32,000 nucleotides of DNA, taken from NCBI GenBank assembly GCA_039809905.1, contig JBDHVY010000001.1, positions 660,001 through 692,000 on the forward strand, written 5' to 3'. The notes under the pieces are model-generated. The model saw nothing but the letters and a program-made list of their open reading frames with translations, had not been told where the DNA came from and searched no databases. The translations under genes and the position numbers were made by a program. This stretch comes from Candidatus Babelota bacterium (GTDB lineage Bacteria; Babelota; Babeliae; Babelales; Vermiphilaceae). Numbering within the stretch: position 1 is the stretch's first letter; every line of letters starts with the position of its first letter. Shown piece by piece: positions 2,765-24,368 of this stretch.

Positions 2765-3481
2765 ATGATTACACTACATACAGCCGAAATGTTTATTGGT
2801 ATTATTACTTTTTTTATTGCCTATCTTGTGGTGATTACAATTTCAAATGTATTTCGAGCATGGGTAGCATACGAAGTGGGTGATGATACGGGTGTTCGCT
2901 TAGGATACCTTACTTTAAATCCTATGCATCATATTGATCCAATTGGTCTTTTTTTCTTGTTTATGTTTTATTTTGGATGGGGACGTATGGTTCCAATTAA
3001 TCCGTTACTCATTTCTGAGCCATATCGCACGCTGAAACTAATAGTAGCATATCTTTCTGATTCTTTTATGAATCTTTTGCTGAGCTTATGTGGAATTATA
3101 TTATTGCTGGGCATTTTTGATGCAAATATTATAGGTGCAATGCGTTATATGGTATTGACGTATAATGTCTCTCATTTGGTTATTGCAAATATGTATCCTC
3201 AGGTTTCATCATTTGCTATTTCTCTTGGATTTATAATATTTGCTTTTGTATATCTTAATGTAGTACTTGGAGTATTGCATTTTATTATTAACTTCAGTAA
3301 TTGTTTATTATTTGTTTTGGCAGATCGTTCTTATAAAGTTGCGCAATATGCACAATACATAACAATTGGTTTACCTATTATTCTTATTTTGTTTTTTTCG
3401 CCATTGTTGCGATTGTTATCAGTGCATTTGATTTCGTATCTAGGTCTTATTATTGCCCATGTAATTGGTATAGCTGGATAA
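2765..3481 (+). CDS. Peptidase M50 (site-2 protease)-family polytopic membrane protein, catalytic HExxH motif not conserved
   Basis: 238-aa hydrophobic ORF. AWVAYEVGDDTGVRLGYLTLNPMHHIDPIG...FGWGRMVPINP matches my memory of the short M50 family (HEFAHAWxAxxLGDxTAxxxGRLTLNPLxHxDPxG...GWAKPVPVNP). The HExxH position reads SNVFR (2843-2857). Confidence 0.6.
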   Translation: MITLHTAEMFIGIITFFIAYLVVITISNVFRAWVAYEVGDDTGVRLGYLTLNPMHHIDPIGLFFLFMFYFGWGRMVPINPLLISEPYRTLKLIVAYLSDSFMNLLLSLCGIILLLGIFDANIIGAMRYMVLTYNVSHLVIANMYPQVSSFAISLGFIIFAFVYLNVVLGVLHFIINFSNCLLFVLADRSYKVAQYAQYITIGLPIILILFFSPLLRLLSVHLISYLGLIIAHVIGIAG

Positions 3482-3484
3482 ATT

Positions 3485-4681
3485 ATGATGAATATTGAAA
3501 AAATAATAGAACAACTATCTGCAGGAACAGTTAACATCTATTCTGAAAACGAACTTGTTACTGCAATAAAAAATGAAAAAATACTTACGGTAAAATTAGG
3601 GGCTGATCCTACTGCGCCTGATTTACATTTGGGGCATGCGGTTGTTTTCTCTAAATTAAAACAGTTCCAGGATCTTGGGCACAAAGTGATATTCTTAATC
3701 GGTAATTTTACCGCACAAATTGGTGATCCAACAGGGCGAGATAAAACTCGACCACCGCTAACAGCGCAAGCAATTCAGCATAATTTACAGTCTTATTTTG
3801 ATCAAGTTGGCAGAATTTTAGACTCATCAACAATAACTATCGTATATAATGCAGATTGGTTAAGTACGTTAACGAGTGCTGATCTTGTTGGTTTACTTGC
3901 TAAAGTAACTCTTGCTCGTATTGTTGAACGTGATGATTTTCAAAAACGTATCAAAAATAATGAATCAGTCAGTATGCATGAATTATTATACCCTATTTTT
4001 CAGGCATATGATTCTGTTGTACTGAAAGCTGATGTTGAATTAGGTGGTACTGATCAAACATTCAATCTCTTAATGGGGCGTTTTCTGCAAGAACAATATG
4101 GCCAAAAGGGACAAATTGCCATCACTATGCCATTGCTTGTTGGTTTAGATGGTGTGCATAAAATGTCAAAATCCTTAGGTAATTATGTTGGTTTAAACGA
4201 ACCAGCACATCAAGCTTTTGGAAAATTAATGTCTATGTCAGATCAATTGATGTGGCATTATTTTGAACTGCTGCTTCATAAAACTGCACAAGAAGTTAAA
4301 CAGATGCAAGACGATATCGCCTCTGGCTCTCTACATCCCATGAATATTAAAAAAGATATGGCTCAAGCTATTGTAGCACGTTTTTGGTCTGCTGATGAGG
4401 CAATAGCTGCACGAAATCAATTTGAAGCATTATTTCAGCAGCGTGATTATTCTCAGGCGCAAGATGTGCAGTTGCCAGAAAATACAGCCAATCCACTATG
4501 GATTGTTGAACTGCTCAAGATTTTAGATGCAGTGAAAACGTCTTCTGAAGCTAAACGATTAATTGAATCAGGATCTGTGCATATTGATGATAACATTATT
4601 AATGATTTTAAAGCTATTGTTGCTTACAAATCTGGTTCTATTATCAAAGTTGGCAAACACCGTATTTATAAGATTAAATAA
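3485..4681 (+). CDS. tyrS: Tyrosyl-tRNA synthetase
   Basis: 398 aa. HIGH region GADPTAPDLHLGHAV, KMSKS region HKMSKSLGNYV, C-terminal S4-like domain (AKRLIESGSVHIDDNII). Starts 3 nt after the upstream stop. Confidence 0.9.
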   Translation: MMNIEKIIEQLSAGTVNIYSENELVTAIKNEKILTVKLGADPTAPDLHLGHAVVFSKLKQFQDLGHKVIFLIGNFTAQIGDPTGRDKTRPPLTAQAIQHNLQSYFDQVGRILDSSTITIVYNADWLSTLTSADLVGLLAKVTLARIVERDDFQKRIKNNESVSMHELLYPIFQAYDSVVLKADVELGGTDQTFNLLMGRFLQEQYGQKGQIAITMPLLVGLDGVHKMSKSLGNYVGLNEPAHQAFGKLMSMSDQLMWHYFELLLHKTAQEVKQMQDDIASGSLHPMNIKKDMAQAIVARFWSADEAIAARNQFEALFQQRDYSQAQDVQLPENTANPLWIVELLKILDAVKTSSEAKRLIESGSVHIDDNIINDFKAIVAYKSGSIIKVGKHRIYKIK

Positions 4682-4687
4682 TATTAT

Positions 4688-5425
4688 ATGGATGCTATCG
4701 TTAAATCAGGATTTTTACTTGTTAATAAGCCAGTAGGTGTTAGTTCCTACGGTTGTATTGGTCGTATAAAAAAAATTATATACCAAAGTTATCAAGGGTC
4801 AGGTCGTCTCAAAATAAAAATTGGACATGCAGGAACATTGGATCCATTTGCATCAGGCTTGCTAATTGTTGCCATAGGTCGTGAGGCAACACGGCTTATA
4901 TCAAACTTTATGGTTATGGAAAAGACCTATATTGCTACTGGCAAATGCGGCGAACTAACTGATACGCTTGATTGTACAGGAACTATCGTATCTACTGCTG
5001 ATTATATTCCATCGCAAGAAGAAATAAAACAATCATTGGAAAGCTTTGGATCTTCTTATGAACAAATTCCTCCTCTTTATTCTGCGTTAAAGCACCAAGG
5101 AAAACCATTATATGCGCTGACCCGTAATAAAATAATGGATAAACAAGATTTGGAAGAAATAGCAAGCAATAAGCGCAGAACGATTCAAATATATGATAAA
5201 AAGTTTTTATCGTATGATGCTCCTTTTTTTACTATTCAAGTTCGTGTTTCTCATGGTACTTATATCCGCACACTTATCAATGATATTGCCAGTAGAGCTG
5301 GTAGTTGTGCTACAACATATCAACTTTCACGCACTTCCATTGGGCAATTTGATCTTGATCGGGCAATTGACGTATTTCAACTCAATACTATTGATGATCT
5401 TAATCAGAACATTATTTTTATTTAA
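4688..5425 (+). CDS. truB: tRNA pseudouridine(55) synthase TruB (short form, no obvious PUA domain)
   Basis: 245 aa. Catalytic-Asp motif GHAGTLDPFASGLLIVAIG, plus YSALKHQGKPLY and HGTYIRTL motifs typical of TruB. Confidence 0.9.
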   Translation: MDAIVKSGFLLVNKPVGVSSYGCIGRIKKIIYQSYQGSGRLKIKIGHAGTLDPFASGLLIVAIGREATRLISNFMVMEKTYIATGKCGELTDTLDCTGTIVSTADYIPSQEEIKQSLESFGSSYEQIPPLYSALKHQGKPLYALTRNKIMDKQDLEEIASNKRRTIQIYDKKFLSYDAPFFTIQVRVSHGTYIRTLINDIASRAGSCATTYQLSRTSIGQFDLDRAIDVFQLNTIDDLNQNIIFI

Positions 5426-17222: not shown

Positions 17223-17303
17223 AAAATCTTAAACAGGGGTTCCCAATATCTTTGCATCAGCTCAGGATGAGCGGAAAATCTTAAGCGGAGTTCCTAGCGG
17301 AGT
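17223..17303 (+). promoter_or_regulatory. Direct-repeat cluster in the ftsA-ftsZ intergenic region
   Basis: AAAATCTTAA at 17223-17232 and 17275-17284, each followed within 11 nt by GTTCC. AGCGGA at 17270, 17284 and 17296, the last two as AGCGGAGT spaced 12 nt apart. Locally G+C-richer than the surroundings. Function unknown. Confidence 0.3.
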
Positions 17304-17337
17304 GTTAACATAGCTGGGGTATAAAAAGGAGATCGCT

Positions 17338-18585
17338 ATGATAGAGTTTGAACAAGAAGCGTTACAGCGTCAAAGATCAATGGTATCAATCAAGGTCATT
17401 GGCGTTGGCGGTGCTGGTGGAAATGCAGTAAATAGCATTATAGAATCGGGATGTCAGGGAATTGGTTTTGTTGTTGCAAATACTGATGCACAAGCATTGG
17501 AATTTTCAAAAGCGCAACATAAAATTCAAATTGGTGTTAAGTCTACTAAAGGGTTAGGGGCGGGGGCAAATCCGGATATGGGAAAACGTGCAGCAGAAGA
17601 AGATCTGGATAAGGTAATGGATGCTGTTAGTGGAGCAGACATTGTCTTTATCGTTGGTGGCATGGGAGGAGGAACGGGTTCAGGAGGATTACCAGTTGTT
17701 GCGCGTGCATTGCGTGATAAAGGTGTGTTGGTAATTGCGATTGTAACTCGTCCATTTTTGTTTGAAGGTAAACGCCGTGCAGCTGTTGCAGATGATGCAA
17801 TTCAAAAACTCAAACAAGATGTTGACACATTGATTGTTATACCTAATCAAAAATTGCTTGAAGTAGTGGATCAGCATGTTTCTATGATTGATGCATTTGC
17901 AATGATTAATGAAGGTATTTTAAGTCAATCAGTGCGTGGATTATCTGATATCATTACTCGTCCAGGACACATCAATGTTGATTATGCTGATATCAGAACA
18001 ATTATGAAAGATCGTGGTCTTGCAGTAATGGGTACAGGTAAGGCATCAGGAAAAGGAAGAGCACGACAAGCAGCTCTAGAAGCAATATCATCACCATTAT
18101 TGGAAAATATGAGTGTTGAAGGTGCGCATGGTGTGTTATGCAATATTACTGGTGGTAAAGGTCTTGGATTACATGAAATCAGCGAAGCTGCGTCAGTGGT
18201 TTATGAACAAGCTCATGAAGATGCAAATATTATTATTGGTTCGGTAATTGATGAGAATTTACATGATGAAGTTATTGTTACTATCATAGCAACAGATTTT
18301 GAACGTCCTGTAGTTGTGCAGCAGACAAAAGAAGAAGTTGTGATTGCTGAACAAGTGATAGTGCAACACCATGAAGAAATCATTTTTGAAGCAATGCCGA
18401 TTGAAAAGCATGAACCCGTTATTGAACCGCTGCCATTAATGATGGAAACGCAAGAAGATGAATTCATGTTTGAGCCGGAAGAAACGAATAAGCATGATGA
18501 TGTTGTGGAAAAAAATACAACATTTAGTTGCGCAGTAGATTCCAAAGATCTTGATGTGCCGACATTTATGCGGCAGCAGAAGTAA
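17338..18585 (+). CDS. ftsZ: Cell-division GTPase FtsZ
   Basis: 415 aa. GVGGAGGNAVN, tubulin signature GGMGGGTGSGGLPVVA, acidic linker, and conserved C-terminal peptide DLDVPTFMRQQK. SD AAGGAG upstream. Confidence 0.95.
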   Translation: MIEFEQEALQRQRSMVSIKVIGVGGAGGNAVNSIIESGCQGIGFVVANTDAQALEFSKAQHKIQIGVKSTKGLGAGANPDMGKRAAEEDLDKVMDAVSGADIVFIVGGMGGGTGSGGLPVVARALRDKGVLVIAIVTRPFLFEGKRRAAVADDAIQKLKQDVDTLIVIPNQKLLEVVDQHVSMIDAFAMINEGILSQSVRGLSDIITRPGHINVDYADIRTIMKDRGLAVMGTGKASGKGRARQAALEAISSPLLENMSVEGAHGVLCNITGGKGLGLHEISEAASVVYEQAHEDANIIIGSVIDENLHDEVIVTIIATDFERPVVVQQTKEEVVIAEQVIVQHHEEIIFEAMPIEKHEPVIEPLPLMMETQEDEFMFEPEETNKHDDVVEKNTTFSCAVDSKDLDVPTFMRQQK

Positions 18586-18636: not shown

Positions 18637-19989
18637 CTAATTTTTAGAGAGATTTTCATATTGATTTAAATAATTATCGGTGACATATCTTTTTTCAAAT
18701 TTTTTAAAAATTATTTCTGGTTCTAGAGTAGATAGCAATGTTCTTTGATCGCGAGTTAACTCCTCTGAAATTTTTTCAGTAAAATTCCATTTTTCTATTT
18801 TTGTTGGATTGTATATTTTTTCACATAGATGAATCAAGTCGCGCATTTGTTTAATTTTTAGTAATTTATTTTGTGCTTCAACAACTGTTGTTAGCCGCTC
18901 TTCAAGAGTTTTTTTGGGTTTTTCTGCGGCATACTTAGTAGCTTTTTCTATTATTTCTTGAATGTCAGTCAAAGTCATATTGTTTGTGTTGTCTAGAAAA
19001 TATTTTCGCAATTTTTTTTGTTCTTTGGGTAATATTGGATCTATAATTTTTTCTTTTTCTGGTAATTGTGGTAGTTGTTTTCGATATTTTATCTGTTTGA
19101 TATCCCATAGAGCTCTAGCAAAACAATCACAATCTATATTTTCTAATTCTGAGTTCTTGTTCATTGCAATTTGACTTGCATTTGAAATAAAGCTTTCTAT
19201 ATCTGCGGAATTTAATCCTTCTGTTACTTCTACTAACATTTTAAGAAAAGAATCAGGTATTTCTTTTTTAGGAAATATCTTTACAAAATTATCAGAAGGG
19301 ATTTTATTAAAAGATATTCTTAGTAAGTTTTCACGTTGAGATTCATTAAGAGCAGATTGTCCTGATTTCTCTTTTAGTTCTTCGAGCATTGGTTTAATAA
19401 CCGTTATCAAAGAAATATTTTGAGTTGATAAAAGTAATTCATGATATATTATTCGTAAAAATTCATGCTTGAAAGCTGGTATAGAGCTGTCAGTGAAATC
19501 ATTAGGCTTCTTTTTTTTTAATTTTTCAATTATTTGATTAATGTAATAGTCGATTTTTGTTCTTGTATCTGCTTGAGCTATTTTTGATCCTAATACTGTT
19601 TTATATATATTAAAAGTTTCTTCAGGTAATCCAGTTACTATTGTCTTTAATAAATTTATTGATGATTTAATAGATGCACTCGATTTATAAGGAATTGGTG
19701 TGAGGTATCGATCATACAATTCCTGTGCAGCTTTGCTAAATTGTTTATCCAGAGATGCGTTTTTCTTGTATCGCTTATAATTATATAGCCACGAAAAGTC
19801 TTCAAAAAGATCAGAAATATTTGTCACATTTTGTTTGTAATTATAATAGCTTTTCATCAATGTAGAAAGAGTAGTACGTATACCAGTAATTGTATCCCAT
19901 AGTGCATACAGTTGTTCTGCAGCACATATTTGTGTAGGCGATGCGTATATACTTATACTAAGCAAAGCAATCAAAAGATTATTCTTCAT
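18637..19989 (-). CDS. Secreted hypothetical protein (K/E-rich, predicted helical)
   Basis: The ORF extends to 20142. Internal ATG 19987-19989 is preceded by AAGGAA and begins a classic signal peptide MKNNLLIALLSISIYASPTQICA|AE. No recognisable domain. Confidence 0.65.
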   Translation of the reverse strand: MKNNLLIALLSISIYASPTQICAAEQLYALWDTITGIRTTLSTLMKSYYNYKQNVTNISDLFEDFSWLYNYKRYKKNASLDKQFSKAAQELYDRYLTPIPYKSSASIKSSINLLKTIVTGLPEETFNIYKTVLGSKIAQADTRTKIDYYINQIIEKLKKKKPNDFTDSSIPAFKHEFLRIIYHELLLSTQNISLITVIKPMLEELKEKSGQSALNESQRENLLRISFNKIPSDNFVKIFPKKEIPDSFLKMLVEVTEGLNSADIESFISNASQIAMNKNSELENIDCDCFARALWDIKQIKYRKQLPQLPEKEKIIDPILPKEQKKLRKYFLDNTNNMTLTDIQEIIEKATKYAAEKPKKTLEERLTTVVEAQNKLLKIKQMRDLIHLCEKIYNPTKIEKWNFTEKISEELTRDQRTLLSTLEPEIIFKKFEKRYVTDNYLNQYENLSKN

Positions 19990-20170
19990 TTCCTTTACCT
20001 TGTTTTTTTGATATTCAATCTGAATATAACAATGAGGGTAAAGAAAAAACAAGAAAAGACCAAACTCTTTTTTATCAGAAACGTGGTCTAGGTTCTGTTG
20101 AATTTTTGAAACAGTATCAAAGTTGTAGCACGAATATTTCAAGTAACTCCACGTGCTTATTCTGGCTTGT

Positions 20171-20542
20171 TTAATTTTTTGATACCATTTCTTGTTCTAC
20201 TTGTTGCTCTATTTTTGCCATCATAATGCAAGCAGGTGCAGCTAATAAAGTTCCCGTGAGCATGTATCGTAAACCTATTTTTTTAGAAGGTATTACATGG
20301 TAGGGAGGTTTTTGCAGGAAGTTAGGCATTCTATTTGAATAATGCATAGCTCCCCAGACGCTTATGAGTGGGTTAAGTAAGAGTGCAAATCCCGCCATTT
20401 GCCTAAGCTCCGCTTGCGCAAATGACTGTTTAGCATATATTTTTTTTCTTATTAAATCTTTTTGATTGTTCTCACTAGCAGCTAAAAGCATGGATAATAT
20501 TGCTAATATAAGCATAAGAATTAAGTTTTTTAAAGGAGCCAC
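20171..20542 (-). CDS. Small hypothetical membrane protein
   Basis: 123 aa. GTG start with AAGGAA 9 nt upstream. Hydrophobic segments LILMLILAILSMLLAA, GFALLLNPLISVWGAM, LTGTLLAAPACIMMA. Confidence 0.5.
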   Translation of the reverse strand: MAPLKNLILMLILAILSMLLAASENNQKDLIRKKIYAKQSFAQAELRQMAGFALLLNPLISVWGAMHYSNRMPNFLQKPPYHVIPSKKIGLRYMLTGTLLAAPACIMMAKIEQQVEQEMVSKN

Positions 20543-20684: not shown

Positions 20685-22427
20685 GTGAGAAATTTTATTA
20701 TTCGTAGTTTGGTAATTATTGTAAACATGAGTGGGTTGTGTCTAGCCAATGAATTTGGTTCTACCGTAACACCAAATTCGATTATTTATATACAAGGCTT
20801 ATATAATGAACAATCTTTTTTTCAACAACCTAGTTCTTCTTGCCAAGCATATAAACATCGCAACAACATTTATTTTGGCGAAAACTTACATAATTATACG
20901 ATTACGCAACTTCAGCATTATTTCAGAACGCATAATTATTCTGAGCAACAAATACTTGATCAAGGATTATTATATCTTTCTGACGAGTTTGTAAAACTTG
21001 CAAAAACCTATGCTGCATATGAGCAAACCATAGAAAAATTGTACAATAAGTTCAAAAAATTTGGGTTCATCAAGAAGATTTTATATAGGTTTACAGGTTC
21101 TTATTCTTCTGGACTTAAACGACGCATAAGACAATTGCATGAAGAAATTCGCCTCAAAAAAGAATGCGAAAAAAAACAAGCAATCGAAACAATGCAGCAA
21201 TATAGTATATATTCTCACTATCTGCTATCCGATGTGAGCGATAGAGAATATCAAGAGTTAAAACCAGTGTATGATCAATTTTCACCATTACTTGCGCAGG
21301 CAATTGAAAAACGAATAGATGCTCAGACCAAAATTAAAAAGGGATCAGTTCAAGTTTCAACTAAAACATATCGATGTAGTGATTATATGTTGCAATTGCT
21401 TAGCGATAACAAAATTGGCCTTGATGAATTTACAAATTTCTACGGTAACCAATTGCAGCATGCTCTTCATTATGAATCAATCGGGATTCTGGAATATGTA
21501 GCGTCTTTGCCGATGTATTCAGTGTTATATGTTCATCAGAATGCAATTGTTAATTGTACTACAGCACTATCTGCCTACAACAAAGAAGGTTTAGTTGATA
21601 AAGCAAGTGTGGTAGCAGATTTTTGTTGGACTTTGCTTGATTATGGTCAGGCAATAGCAGAAGGTGCAGCATCAGGTTTATATACAACAGCGCAAGACCT
21701 TATAGCTAATCCTATTGAAGCAACTGTGTGCATTGTTGCAGGCAAACAGGTTCTTGCGTATCAGTTGTGCAAAGTATTTTATAACGTGACTGATATTGGA
21801 ATAACTGCATTAAATAATTATGATCGCGCAAAAGAAAAATGGGATTATTATATAGAGCCTATCAATAATCTGATTTCTGCTATCGAAAAAAAAGAAATAA
21901 CAATACGTGATGCCTTAAAAACAGGAACAGCTTTTGTTGTTGGCTATAAGGCACAAAGCAAATTATTGGGCGGGCTAGGTCAGTTTTTTGGGACGATTAA
22001 GCAAAGTGCTATTCGGTTTGCACAAACCAATATTTCTTCTTTTACAATACAGCAATATTTATCAACGCCAGAAGGATATTTATTAAGAAGCACTGCTAAA
22101 TTGTGTCGTTCGTCTAATTCTCCTAATCAATATGAGTATCTAAAACAATGGCTAAAAATAAAGGAATTTACTTCAGTTATAAAAACGAGCAAACACGGGA
22201 TAGAAAGATTAATCGAACGAGATTTCACGCCAGAAGAAGTTCTTGCAGTGATGAAGACTCCAACTTTTGTTAAAGTTCAGAAAGATGGGGCATTTGCTTA
22301 TATAAAACAAATAGGAGAAAAATTTAATGTGATTGTTTTTAATAAACAAAATGAAGAAGTTGTAACTGTTTTAAAACATACAACGCAAAAAAAACTTGAG
22401 CAGATGGGAAAAAATTATGGATGGTAA
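20685..22427 (+). CDS. Secreted polymorphic-toxin-like protein with C-terminal DUF4258 / RelE-BrnT-like RNase-toxin signature
   Basis: 580 aa. GTG start with GGAGAG 4 nt upstream. Signal-like MRNFIIRSLVIIVNMSGLCLA|NE. C-terminal 22191-22424 = KHGIERLIERDFTPEEVLAVMKTPTFVKVQKDGAFAYIKQIGEKFNVIVFNKQNEEVVTVLKH. Its stop codon is overlapped by the next ORF. Confidence 0.6.
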   Translation: MRNFIIRSLVIIVNMSGLCLANEFGSTVTPNSIIYIQGLYNEQSFFQQPSSSCQAYKHRNNIYFGENLHNYTITQLQHYFRTHNYSEQQILDQGLLYLSDEFVKLAKTYAAYEQTIEKLYNKFKKFGFIKKILYRFTGSYSSGLKRRIRQLHEEIRLKKECEKKQAIETMQQYSIYSHYLLSDVSDREYQELKPVYDQFSPLLAQAIEKRIDAQTKIKKGSVQVSTKTYRCSDYMLQLLSDNKIGLDEFTNFYGNQLQHALHYESIGILEYVASLPMYSVLYVHQNAIVNCTTALSAYNKEGLVDKASVVADFCWTLLDYGQAIAEGAASGLYTTAQDLIANPIEATVCIVAGKQVLAYQLCKVFYNVTDIGITALNNYDRAKEKWDYYIEPINNLISAIEKKEITIRDALKTGTAFVVGYKAQSKLLGGLGQFFGTIKQSAIRFAQTNISSFTIQQYLSTPEGYLLRSTAKLCRSSNSPNQYEYLKQWLKIKEFTSVIKTSKHGIERLIERDFTPEEVLAVMKTPTFVKVQKDGAFAYIKQIGEKFNVIVFNKQNEEVVTVLKHTTQKKLEQMGKNYGW

Positions 22428-22644
22428 AGAAAAAAAAGATAGATATGTATGTTGTTTTTGTGATGTTGTAATAGTATCTTGTAATGGCAATCCTATGGAA
22501 ATAGACATGTTAATAAATTTTGACAAACCAAAACAAAAACAAGAAAGGCAAGCCTTTTATTGTCATATGGAATGTTTTAAAGAACAGCTAAATGATGATT
22601 TTAAGATACATTTTCATTTAGATTCTTTTATTTCTTTAGAATAG
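22417..22644 (+). CDS. Cys-rich mini-protein (CCFC...CHxxC), candidate immunity protein 1
   Basis: ATG 22417 lies inside the last 11 nt of the upstream ORF (ATGGATGGTAA); GGGAAA sits 6 nt upstream. About 75 aa: YVCCFC...FYCHMECFKEQL. Paralogous to 22678-22953. Confidence 0.6.
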   Translation: MDGKEKKDRYVCCFCDVVIVSCNGNPMEIDMLINFDKPKQKQERQAFYCHMECFKEQLNDDFKIHFHLDSFISLE

Positions 22645-22677
22645 GTGTTTATCCATATAAAAAAATAGGTATCAGAA

Positions 22678-22953
22678 GTGAAATTAAAAAAAATCATAAA
22701 AAGAATATGGTCTATGATACAAGAAACGATCAACAATGAGTCTTTAGGATTTTCTTGTTGTTTTTGTTCCCAATCAATAATGGCTTTAGATAAGTATCCA
22801 GCAGATCTTCATATTACTGTTAATATTGATAAATCGGAAGATCAACAGCATGATCAATTTTTCTTTTGTCATACAGATTGTTTTAAGAATAAGTTGCATA
22901 ACAATATAAAATCTTACTTTACACTAGAGCAAATTGAGGACAAATATGACTAA
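22678..22953 (+). CDS. Cys-rich mini-protein (CCFC...CHxxC), candidate immunity protein 2 (paralogue)
   Basis: GTG 22678 (alternative ATG 22714). FSCCFC...FFCHTDCFKNKL. About 30% identity by eye to the preceding ORF over about 62 aa, with all Cys/His ligand positions conserved. Confidence 0.55.
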   Translation: MKLKKIIKRIWSMIQETINNESLGFSCCFCSQSIMALDKYPADLHITVNIDKSEDQQHDQFFFCHTDCFKNKLHNNIKSYFTLEQIEDKYD

Positions 22954-22973: not shown

Positions 22974-24368
22974 CTATTTTTTTAAGGCTATTACTTTAAG
23001 TGAACATAATTCACGCAGCCCAGCTTTACCATGTTCTCGTCCAAGTCCTGATTTTTTATATCCACCAAACGGATCTTGCGGAATTACATAATTTGCATGA
23101 TTTATACTAATGTTGCCTGCTTGAAGATGTCTGCTTACTTGTACTGCACGTTCTTTATCTTGCGTATAGACAAAAGCACTTAATCCATATATAGAATCAT
23201 TTGCTAATGCGATTGCTTCTTCTTGGCTAGAAAATGGAATTATAGGAAGCACTGGCCCAAATACCTCTTCTTTCCATACGTTCATATCAAACGTTATATT
23301 GGTGAGAATAGTTGGTTCAAAGTAAGCACCTTGCAGATTCTGTGGTCGTTTTCCACCGATAATAATATGAGCGCCTTTTTGTACTGCATCAAGAACTTGG
23401 TTTTCAAGACTTATTACTTGACGTTCTGCAACAAGTGGACCGATATCTGTTGCTGGATCTTGTGCAGGGCCAACTTTTTTAGTGAGTACTTTGTTTTTTA
23501 ATTCTTGAACTACCTCATTGAAAATAGTTTGATGTACCAAGAGGCGCTTAAGACCATCACATGTTTGTCCGCTATTAATAAAACGATTAAAATAAATTGA
23601 TTCAATTGCCATTGAAATATGAGCATCTTCAAAAACAATTCCTGCTGATGAACCACCAAGTTCTAAAATTGTGGGAATTAATTTTTGTGCAGCGACTGTG
23701 TATAAATGATTTCCTACTCGAGTGCTACCCGTAAACCAAATAAGATCGATATTGCTTTGCATTAAATATTCACCAATATCATTACCATTGCCGTATACTG
23801 CATTAAAAACTCCTGTTGGTAAGTTTACGGAATGCATGATTTCTTCTAAAAGTTTTCCCGTAAAAGGACATGCTTCTGAATGTTTTAATACAATAGTATT
23901 TCCAACAACCAAATTTTGAATTACTGCCCAAATAAAAAGAGAAAAGGGATAATTCCAAGGGACACTTATTCCTGCTACTCCTTTAGGTTCATAATAAAGA
24001 TAATGAATTTCAGTATCAGATTCATATGTAATTTCAGGCGCTAGCCATTCCTGTGCATAATCTAAATATCCCCGCATATAGAGCAATCCAGGATCAATAT
24101 CTATCTGATTACATACTGATAAAGGCATGCCCACTTCTTGTGCTATGATGGAGCGTAGATCATTTTTTTTCGCTATAAATGCGTGATAAAGCTTTTCAAG
24201 ATATACAATTCTTTCATTAATAGAAAGCTCTGCCCAAGCTATTTGTGCCTTGCGAGCATTGATAACTTGTGCATCGATTTCGCTATAAGTTGAAGAATCA
24301 ATTTCTCCAATGACTTGATAATTATTGCTAGGGTTGAGTGAAACAATTTTTTGCGCTTTCATTGTCAT
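22974..24368 (-). CDS. NAD(P)-dependent aldehyde dehydrogenase
   Basis: 464 aa. ELGGSSAGIVFEDA (ELGGK-type Glu motif), catalytic Cys motif NSGQTCDGLKR, EEVFGPVLPI, PFGGYKKSGLGRE. Start may be ATG 24362, which is better spaced from GAAAGG. Confidence 0.88.
   Translation of the reverse strand: MTMKAQKIVSLNPSNNYQVIGEIDSSTYSEIDAQVINARKAQIAWAELSINERIVYLEKLYHAFIAKKNDLRSIIAQEVGMPLSVCNQIDIDPGLLYMRGYLDYAQEWLAPEITYESDTEIHYLYYEPKGVAGISVPWNYPFSLFIWAVIQNLVVGNTIVLKHSEACPFTGKLLEEIMHSVNLPTGVFNAVYGNGNDIGEYLMQSNIDLIWFTGSTRVGNHLYTVAAQKLIPTILELGGSSAGIVFEDAHISMAIESIYFNRFINSGQTCDGLKRLLVHQTIFNEVVQELKNKVLTKKVGPAQDPATDIGPLVAERQVISLENQVLDAVQKGAHIIIGGKRPQNLQGAYFEPTILTNITFDMNVWKEEVFGPVLPIIPFSSQEEAIALANDSIYGLSAFVYTQDKERAVQVSRHLQAGNISINHANYVIPQDPFGGYKKSGLGREHGKAGLRELCSLKVIALKK

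Follow-up and report, generated by a model that had tools for sequence, protein, structure and literature searches.

The N-terminal zinc-binding domain of MqsA neutralizes MqsR. Other systems of interest here center on the DUF4258 domain, which has been treated as a colicin-like BECR domain (bioRxiv 10.64898/2026.08.28.747851), as a type II toxin–antitoxin (TA) toxin for which MqsA fusions are reported (PMC11980606), and as a CdiA-CT domain marked “tRNase (?)” (PMC11630599). DUF4258 overlaps Ntox49, which is predicted to be an RNase of the BECR fold and in which H and K/R residues are conserved; Imm22 is the immunity partner listed for Ntox49 (Zhang et al. 2012, PMC3482391). Because MqsA-type partners are known (PMC11980606), a zinc-binding neutralizer of DUF4258 toxins would not be unprecedented in principle. 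A further example of immunity to an RNase toxin is MafI2: it obstructs the substrate face of MafB2-CT (PMC9970974). The present analysis concerns 32,000 nucleotides (nt) of Candidatus Babelota bacterium DNA (assembly GCA_039809905.1, contig JBDHVY010000001.1, positions 660,001 to 692,000 of the forward strand); this whole stretch is called the window below. It contains a gene for a 580-amino-acid (aa) putative toxin precursor that is followed by two small open reading frames (ORFs), ORF A and ORF B, whose products are paralogous Cys/His mini-proteins.

ORF A and ORF B belong to a family of ~60–75-residue Cys2-His-Cys proteins, and we consider it highly probable that this family is a dedicated immunity or antitoxin partner of one DUF4258/Ntox49-like clade of toxin tips. 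This reading is supported by the family’s adjacency to the tip across phyla, by its fusions to Imm27 and Imm38, by its retention after toxin loss, and by purifying selection. The kind of system, a polymorphic toxin or TA module with its immunity protein, is well known, and the toxin clade sits at the border of a family already described. The mini-protein family itself appears to be undescribed in the libraries and literature that we searched, and its metal-site architecture appears unusual for an immunity protein. The features under discussion are as follows.

20685..22427, + strand: toxin precursor, 580 aa (ORF list)
22152..22424, + strand: toxin tip, DUF4258/Ntox49-like, predicted BECR-fold RNase domain (Pfam, relatives, and AlphaFold2 (AF2) model)
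22417..22427, + strand: 11-nt overlap of the toxin stop and the ORF A start, ATGGATGGTAA (sequence)
22417..22644, + strand: ORF A, 75 aa, CCFC...CHxxC mini-protein (family profile, orthologues, AF2 model)
22678..22953, + strand: ORF B, 91 aa from GTG (79 aa from ATG 22714), paralogous mini-protein (BLASTP, profile)

A family gene follows the tip across phyla

Is the association between tip and mini-protein peculiar to this locus? In a reciprocal test, loci (numbered L; proteins are numbered P) were collected by the tip alone, blind to the mini-protein family. A tip search of metagenomes and metagenome-assembled genomes (MAGs) yielded four loci (L017, L020, L022, and L024), and in each of the four a family gene comes directly after the tip. 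A further 20 loci came from a scan of single genomes, one per species, and belong to Solirubrobacteraceae, Pyrinomonadaceae, other Acidobacteriota, Planctomycetaceae, Clostridia, Vallitalea, Sporotomaculum, Melghiribacillus, and Paenibacillus; a family gene follows the tip within a few dozen bases in 18 of them. One duplicate contig was removed (L022 = L041), leaving L017, L020, and L024 along with the 20 species genomes as 23 independent loci. In 21 of these 23, a family gene is found on the same strand, about −10 to +48 nt after the tip. An earlier note on this DNA had read the two mini-proteins as immunity proteins of the tip and had pointed to genomic co-occurrence as a check; a family member immediately downstream of the tip in nearly every independent locus lends that reading strong comparative-genomic support.

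The two exceptions, L025 and L026, are RHS loci of Solirubrobacteraceae, in which a different ORF occupies the slot (~3220–3470). The slot ORF of L026 matches DUF2283 in Pfam, and that of L025, identified by its near-identity to the L026 ORF (the Pfam scan was run on L026 only), is of the same kind. DUF2283 looks like an alternative antidote for the tip family. Both loci have a further RHS-type cassette after the DUF2283 slot.

The tip is borne by diverse carriers. It ends RHS-repeat proteins in L026, L035, L038, and L027, and tip-bearing RHS toxins occur in Acidobacteriota, Firmicutes, and Actinobacteria; it is also found after DPxGL-type RHS ends (P0221; L022). It stands alone in L020 and L022, and in the window it ends an unrelated Babeliales protein. 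Because the pairing is kept with RHS, stand-alone, and Babeliales 580-aa carriers, the linkage tracks the tip and not the delivery part. At L009 there are two parallel RHS/YD-shell cassettes, one followed by Imm44 and the other by a family member, and the upstream proteins of L009 and L015 end in a tip of the window type. Over 22 loci, the identities of the tip and of its adjacent gene co-vary (r 0.80, Mantel p about 5e-4). The entire cassette of toxin, A, and B recurs in the Babeliales-like assemblies L001–L006, and B-type orthologues follow A-type genes in L001–L006 and L017–L019.

Two of the collected loci have additional features. In L022, the ORF after the immunity gene (4536–4805) begins ...YVDPLGL, the end-of-RHS-core motif, and because of this the locus appears to be an array of orphan RHS tip cassettes; its tip is N-terminally truncated and is without the HG...R motif. 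In L027, a second family gene (1010–1204) lies ~300 nt upstream of the tip-carrying RHS fragment (ORF from 1483), which suggests stacked cassettes.

Fusions, retention after toxin loss, and selection

Other hallmarks of immunity genes were observed in the family. Its domain is fused to Imm27 in P0172, a Firmicutes MAG protein, and to DUF2247 in P0056; DUF2247 is Imm38 (Zhang et al., PMC3482391). At two loci the toxin has decayed. The tip in L045 is frameshifted and broken into three frames (~700–940, a pseudogene), and the overlapping immunity gene, P0009 (929–1150), is intact. This gene, the only copy at its locus, joins an A-like start to a B-like core, a combination suggestive of recombination between the paralogues. 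A Y1 transposase gene adjoins the L045 cassette. The toxin gene of L005 (4360–5208) is shortened to 282 aa and has no detectable tip; A and B are both intact there, and the ORF A protein sequence is identical to that of L003. In L045 and L005, the immunity gene thus seems to have outlived the toxin.

Nonsynonymous (dN) and synonymous (dS) divergence was compared among four Babeliales-like loci. Because dN was 0.12–0.46 against a dS of about 0.7–3 or saturated, the data indicate purifying selection on A, B, and the tip. The ratio dN/dS was about 0.1–0.35 for the three, with dS near saturation, and about 0.14–0.30 for ORF B where dS was defined.

Two paralogous genes of a broad family

The 580-aa ORF ends with the codons ...AAT TAT GGA TGG TAA, and the ATG of ORF A (22417) is embedded in the codons for the conserved N-Y-G-W of the tip. 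The same overlapped start is present in L003 and L017. ORF A is probably translationally coupled to the toxin gene. A spacer of 33 nt separates it from ORF B, whose start codon is GTG and which has an N-terminal extension of ~20 aa. The public gene call for ORF B (P0001) uses ATG 22714; the start is likely to be GTG 22678 (91 aa) instead, because, at the position aligned with the GTG, the B orthologues open with M-K-[IL]-K. The extension, KLKKI..IWS, is kept in orthologues that start with ATG.

An ungapped BLASTP alignment of A and B has 21 of 60 residues identical (35%, E 1e-15): the two are paralogues, and their likeness is far beyond chance. The earlier note’s claim of paralogy is thereby upheld, and its coordinates, its 11-nt overlap, its spacer length, and its colinear alignment of the two proteins were all correct on rechecking against the sequence and BLASTP. 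A profile built from 63 family members matched ORF A with an E of 5e-27 and ORF B with an E of 3.5e-29, and it matched no other protein in the window. Orthologues of ORF A are 64–71% identical to it. On the strength of conservation, profile E-values, and dN/dS, we reject the possibility that these are spurious small ORFs.

The breadth of the family depended on the search employed. A word-indexed search found only nine close relatives of the mini-proteins, one of them annotated from a Candidatus Babeliales MAG. When an exhaustive profile search was run over 1.84 billion cluster representatives, 311 proteins, each standing for a cluster at 50% identity, passed E ≤ 1e-3, and 58 passed E ≤ 1e-10. 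Most family proteins are 60–90 aa long, and in some single proteins (P0011, P0012, P0014, and P0016) the domain is repeated in tandem, two to four times. The family is seen in Babeliales, Acidobacteriota, Planctomycetota, Clostridia, and Bacilli. One match was discarded: P0110, a repetitive protein of 1541 aa, reaches an E of 1.5e-8 through 17 short “CFKxRLH”-like stretches, a low-complexity artefact, and is not a family member.

In 237 unique domains, C12, C15, H50, and C53 (ORF A numbering) are 97–98% conserved (98% for H50), and C13, the second Cys of “CC,” and C49, the Cys before the His, are conserved at 81% and 83%, respectively. Because the former four are near-invariant and C13 and C49 are less so, the core family signature is C-x2-C-x34-H-x2-C. 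The CCFC...CHxxC motif described in the earlier note is real, and it is refined to this core.

The same note had recognized no described immunity family in the mini-proteins, and the libraries agree: neither Pfam, NCBIfam, PADLOC, nor PHROGs models the family. PADLOC and PHROGs returned nothing for ORF A or ORF B, and the Pfam Imm families matched neither A, B, nor any of the 63 members scanned. Run against PDB sequences, the family profile had no match even at E ≤ 10, MqsA included. In the literature, we found nothing linking zf-PARP with polymorphic toxins and nothing linking Dependentiae with them.

What, then, is the status of the second gene? Because it is found constantly behind A in Babeliales-like loci, and because tandem-domain fusions exist, ORF B is evidently a maintained second gene and not a casual orphan. 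The two genes had been described as one coupled and one orphan. This is apt insofar as B has no toxin of its own; it fails in that at least four diverged Babeliales-like loci retain A together with B, at a dN/dS of about 0.1–0.35. One copy would nonetheless be sufficient for the basic function, because outside the Babeliales-like loci a single copy follows the tip.

The carrier protein and its tip

The 580-aa protein has a hydrophobic, signal-peptide-like N-terminus, and its highest Kyte-Doolittle window comprises residues 4–20. No Pfam family matched the ~470 aa between this N-terminus and the tip, a middle portion that is largely Babeliales-specific. Orthologues of the protein in L001–L004 are 48–49% identical to it. 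The tip constitutes the last ~90 residues and contains the motifs LKIKEFTS...HGIERLIER...QKDGA...FNVIV...VVTVLK...KNYGW. Because its close relatives P0202 and P0206 carry a precomputed match to PF14076, the tip clade appears to border the DUF4258 family. The window tip is 36% identical to that of L015 (E 2e-9) and 28% identical to that of the RHS/YD-shell cassette protein in L009 (E 1.5e-5). In one tip alignment (A5), an H, two R, and one K are invariant; in a wider one (A7), these residues are mostly kept, except in N-terminally truncated sequences.

The AF2 model of the tip (predicted local distance difference test score (pLDDT) 93.8) begins with three helices, continues with a four-stranded sheet, and closes with a helix. 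Its top list in Foldseek consists of RelE/HigB/ParE/CdiA-CT toxins, none of them significant (E 0.13–0.8). We regard the tip as a DUF4258/Ntox49-like domain with a predicted BECR fold and predicted RNase activity.

In some loci the tip is separated from its carrier. The toxin gene of a Babeliales MAG (GCA_035455925.1; L001:7730–7732, and also L002) has an in-frame stop, a Q-to-stop change (...NQYDNLK*WLKIKEFTS...), that leaves 492 N-terminal aa on one side and, on the other, a tip that is otherwise intact. Purifying selection still acts on the tip beyond the stop (dN 0.13 vs. the window). This stop could represent recent pseudogenization, read-through, or a separately expressed tip. In L017, the tip is called as a separate 96-aa gene (1088–1378) in another frame than the upstream 372-aa ORF (3–1121); it thus appears to be detached from its carrier, as in L001/L002. 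An A-type and a B-type gene follow this detached tip, as in the window.

Modeled fold and probable metal site of the mini-proteins

The structure of ORF A was modeled with AF2 from the 63-sequence alignment, with a mean pLDDT of 86.6. DSSP assignment of the model places C12 and C15 in a hairpin region (strands 10–11 and 18–19), followed by two long strands, and places H50 and C53 at the junction with, and in the first turn of, helix 51–57. The finger therefore looks, as modeled, like a treble-clef or PARP-finger-like Cys2-His-Cys arrangement, and the mini-proteins presumably bind zinc. A classical zinc ribbon was considered and rejected: the second ligand pair is located at a helix start in the AF2 secondary structure, not in a beta-hairpin knuckle. 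The earlier description as a zinc knuckle or ribbon accordingly survives in part, as the four-ligand Cys/His site is conserved; the ribbon label is probably wrong, given the helix-start position of the second pair and the weak similarity to zf-PARP.

Several comparisons bear on that similarity. A Foldseek search of the ORF A model against the PDB returned nothing significant; the best match was ribosomal protein eS21 (E 0.24). The first zinc finger of PARP-1, Zn1 (3od8, 4av1, and 2dmj), is in the list at a non-significant level (E 0.46–0.9, template-modeling (TM) score 0.37–0.41). Weak, sub-threshold Pfam zf-PARP matches were found in 13 of the 63 members, with a best E of 0.0015–0.0017. The gathering threshold of zf-PARP (PF00645), 39.3 bits, was missed throughout: ORF A had no match, ORF B scored 12.2 bits, and the best member scored 19.7 bits. 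For hhalign comparisons, the sequences of PARP-1 Zn1 and of the MqsA N-terminal zinc domain were verified beforehand (PARP-1 against the PDB). Aligned with PARP-1 Zn1, the four ligands fall in register with C21/C24/H53/C56, at low probability (P 0.015, 3%). The family finger is at best distantly PARP-like, and its membership in the zf-PARP, MqsA, or zinc-ribbon class is not established.

Classification as an MqsA-like zinc-ribbon antitoxin was likewise rejected. The mini-proteins had no Pfam or NCBIfam match to such antitoxins and no PDB sequence match (E ≤ 10), MqsA was absent from the top 50 listed Foldseek matches, and hhalign with MqsA aligned only 15 columns around one CxxC.

Genomic surroundings

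The window is AT-rich, with a guanine-plus-cytosine content of about 29–40%. In such DNA the promoter scan of the window was uninformative (16 promoter-like sites vs. 13.5 expected), and the terminator scan of the window found none. Genes of the ftsA/ftsZ type lie just 5′ of the cassette (15974–18585), and an aldehyde dehydrogenase gene (22974–24368, − strand) is convergent with ORF B. Nearby ORFs without a convincing Pfam family encode a 501-aa protein (18637–20142, − strand), a 123-aa hydrophobic protein (20171–20542, − strand), a protein with a weak WD40-like beta-propeller (24786–25883, + strand), and a 376-aa coiled-coil-rich protein (25989–27119, + strand). These four are possibly lineage-specific secreted or effector proteins.

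Antidote, regulator, or chaperone?

In the mechanism that we propose, the toxin domain would be the C-terminal tip of a signal-peptide-bearing 580-aa protein, and the location of the ORF A start inside the toxin’s last codons would cause toxin and antidote to be made together. Most likely, ORF A would then bind the tip 1:1 and block the face that binds RNA or holds the active site, up to export of the toxin. The blocking mechanism is proposed by analogy with immunity proteins of other RNase toxins, such as MafI2. That ORF A is the antidote co-translated with the toxin is the best-supported reading; in it, ORF A would bind and neutralize the tip directly. ORF B, an old and maintained paralogue, might guard against the diverged tip of relatives, or it might act with A.

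Several observations weigh against this picture or restrict its reach. The tip scores below the Pfam cut-off for DUF4258 (PF14076), which is 25 bits: the full protein reaches 20.1 bits and the tip alone 23.0 bits (E 1e-4). The “DUF4258-type tip” of the earlier note is thus a match that was found, albeit sub-threshold. With the tip below threshold in DUF4258 and a best Foldseek E of 0.13, the label “RNase toxin” rests on family context. The 20 genome loci represent one tip sub-clade that was set by the search patterns, and the 21-of-23 figure may not extend to all DUF4258 relatives. The co-variation of the tip with its neighbor can be produced by co-inheritance alone. Finally, some family members have neighbors that lack the tip. 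One is next to an 840-aa ILEI-domain protein (L011, 3386–5908), and another follows a DSPc phosphatase-like protein (L013, 5485–5991) amid an island of many small ORFs. Such members could be orphan immunity genes, or they could pair with other toxins.

Could the mini-proteins instead be small zinc fingers with nucleic acid as their target, serving to regulate the toxin operon or binding the RNA on which the toxin acts? The PARP/ligase III zinc finger binds DNA nicks, and it is the sole recurrent remote similarity of the family, appearing in the sub-threshold zf-PARP matches, the in-register ligands, and the Foldseek list; autoregulation is also common among type II antitoxins. We nevertheless judge a regulator to be quite improbable. 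The PARP similarity is statistically weak by each measure (Pfam, hhalign, and Foldseek alike), and the fusions to Imm27 and Imm38, together with the family’s place in RHS cassettes, where it takes the Imm slot, typify immunity proteins that bind toxins. Dedicated regulators are usually absent from such cassettes, a regulator of the toxin operon would have no reason to persist after the toxin has decayed, and no evidence favors this role. A chaperone or adaptor that stabilizes or exports the tip would account for the tight adjacency and the overlapping start codons; small accessory proteins are common beside secreted toxins, and our results fit stabilization as well as they fit inhibition. Known adaptors, however, go with the N-terminal delivery module, and their genes usually lie upstream, whereas the present gene tracks the C-terminal tip, and its retention when the toxin is lost suits immunity. 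We therefore hold the chaperone role to be highly improbable.

Within the immunity reading, A and B might combine into one hetero-oligomeric antidote; the alternative is that B works on its own, as an orphan immunity protein directed at a foreign tip variant. The order A+B is kept in the window, in L001/2, in L003–6, and in L017–19, single polypeptides with two to four tandem domains exist, and both A and B are under purifying selection. Yet a single copy suffices after the tip outside the Babeliales-like loci (18 genome loci), L045 keeps only one copy, with its B-like core, and the tandem fusions also look like homogeneous polyimmunity arrays. A joint antidote is possible but, in our estimation, doubtful. 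A more specific scenario would have a bacterial branch of the nucleic-acid-sensing PARP/DNA-ligase-III-type fingers recruited as an anti-RNase antidote, acting either as a competitor or mimic at the RNA groove or as a shield of the RNA target. Babeliales live inside protists, and in this scenario their toxin, exported by Sec, would target the eukaryotic host or other bacteria infecting it. We consider this combination unlikely.

Significance and comparison with known systems

If the immunity reading is correct, a phylogenetically broad and probably metal-dependent immunity family would join the catalogue of polymorphic-toxin and TA systems. The poorly characterized DUF4258/Ntox49 clade would gain a specific partner that could be used to find and annotate cassettes, and the compact inhibitor (~65 aa) and its toxin would be an attractive pair for structural and biochemical work. 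That the reduced-genome, protist-associated Babeliales keep a toxin–antidote cassette with two maintained antidote genes would offer a small clue to the conflict biology of this uncultured lineage. The likeness to the eukaryotic PARP-type finger, weak and in register, is of structural interest.

With zf-PARP, the family shares the ligand order C-x2-C...H-x2-C, a hydrophobic residue at the fourth position past the first ligand pair (CxxCxxxI), and aromatic side chains ahead of the His (“WYHFSCF” vs. “FYCHMECF”). It differs in that its members are single-domain proteins in bacterial toxin cassettes, and every similarity score is below threshold. In L026, DUF2283 takes the position of the family gene immediately behind a tip of this clade, but it is unrelated in sequence and is without a Cys/His metal site. 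MqsA/YgiT proteins offer a functional parallel: there, too, a small zinc-containing domain partners a BECR/DUF4258-type toxin and is encoded after it (toxin/antitoxin order). The MqsA/YgiT site consists of four Cys from two knuckles. The mini-proteins, however, have His as the third ligand and, in the model, their second pair at a helix start rather than in a second knuckle; they end ~20 residues after the site, without the C-terminal helix-turn-helix. Imm22, the listed partner of Ntox49, is an alpha+beta protein with conserved W, Y, and D (PMC3482391), unlike the Cys2-His-Cys mini-proteins, which have no Imm22 match. In their genomic behavior, the mini-proteins resemble the Imm families as a whole (PMC3482391): a small same-strand gene lies immediately 3′ of the tip, the linkage is to the tip and not to the delivery domain, the genes occur in RHS cassette arrays and in fusions to Imm27 and Imm38, and they are retained after the toxin has decayed.

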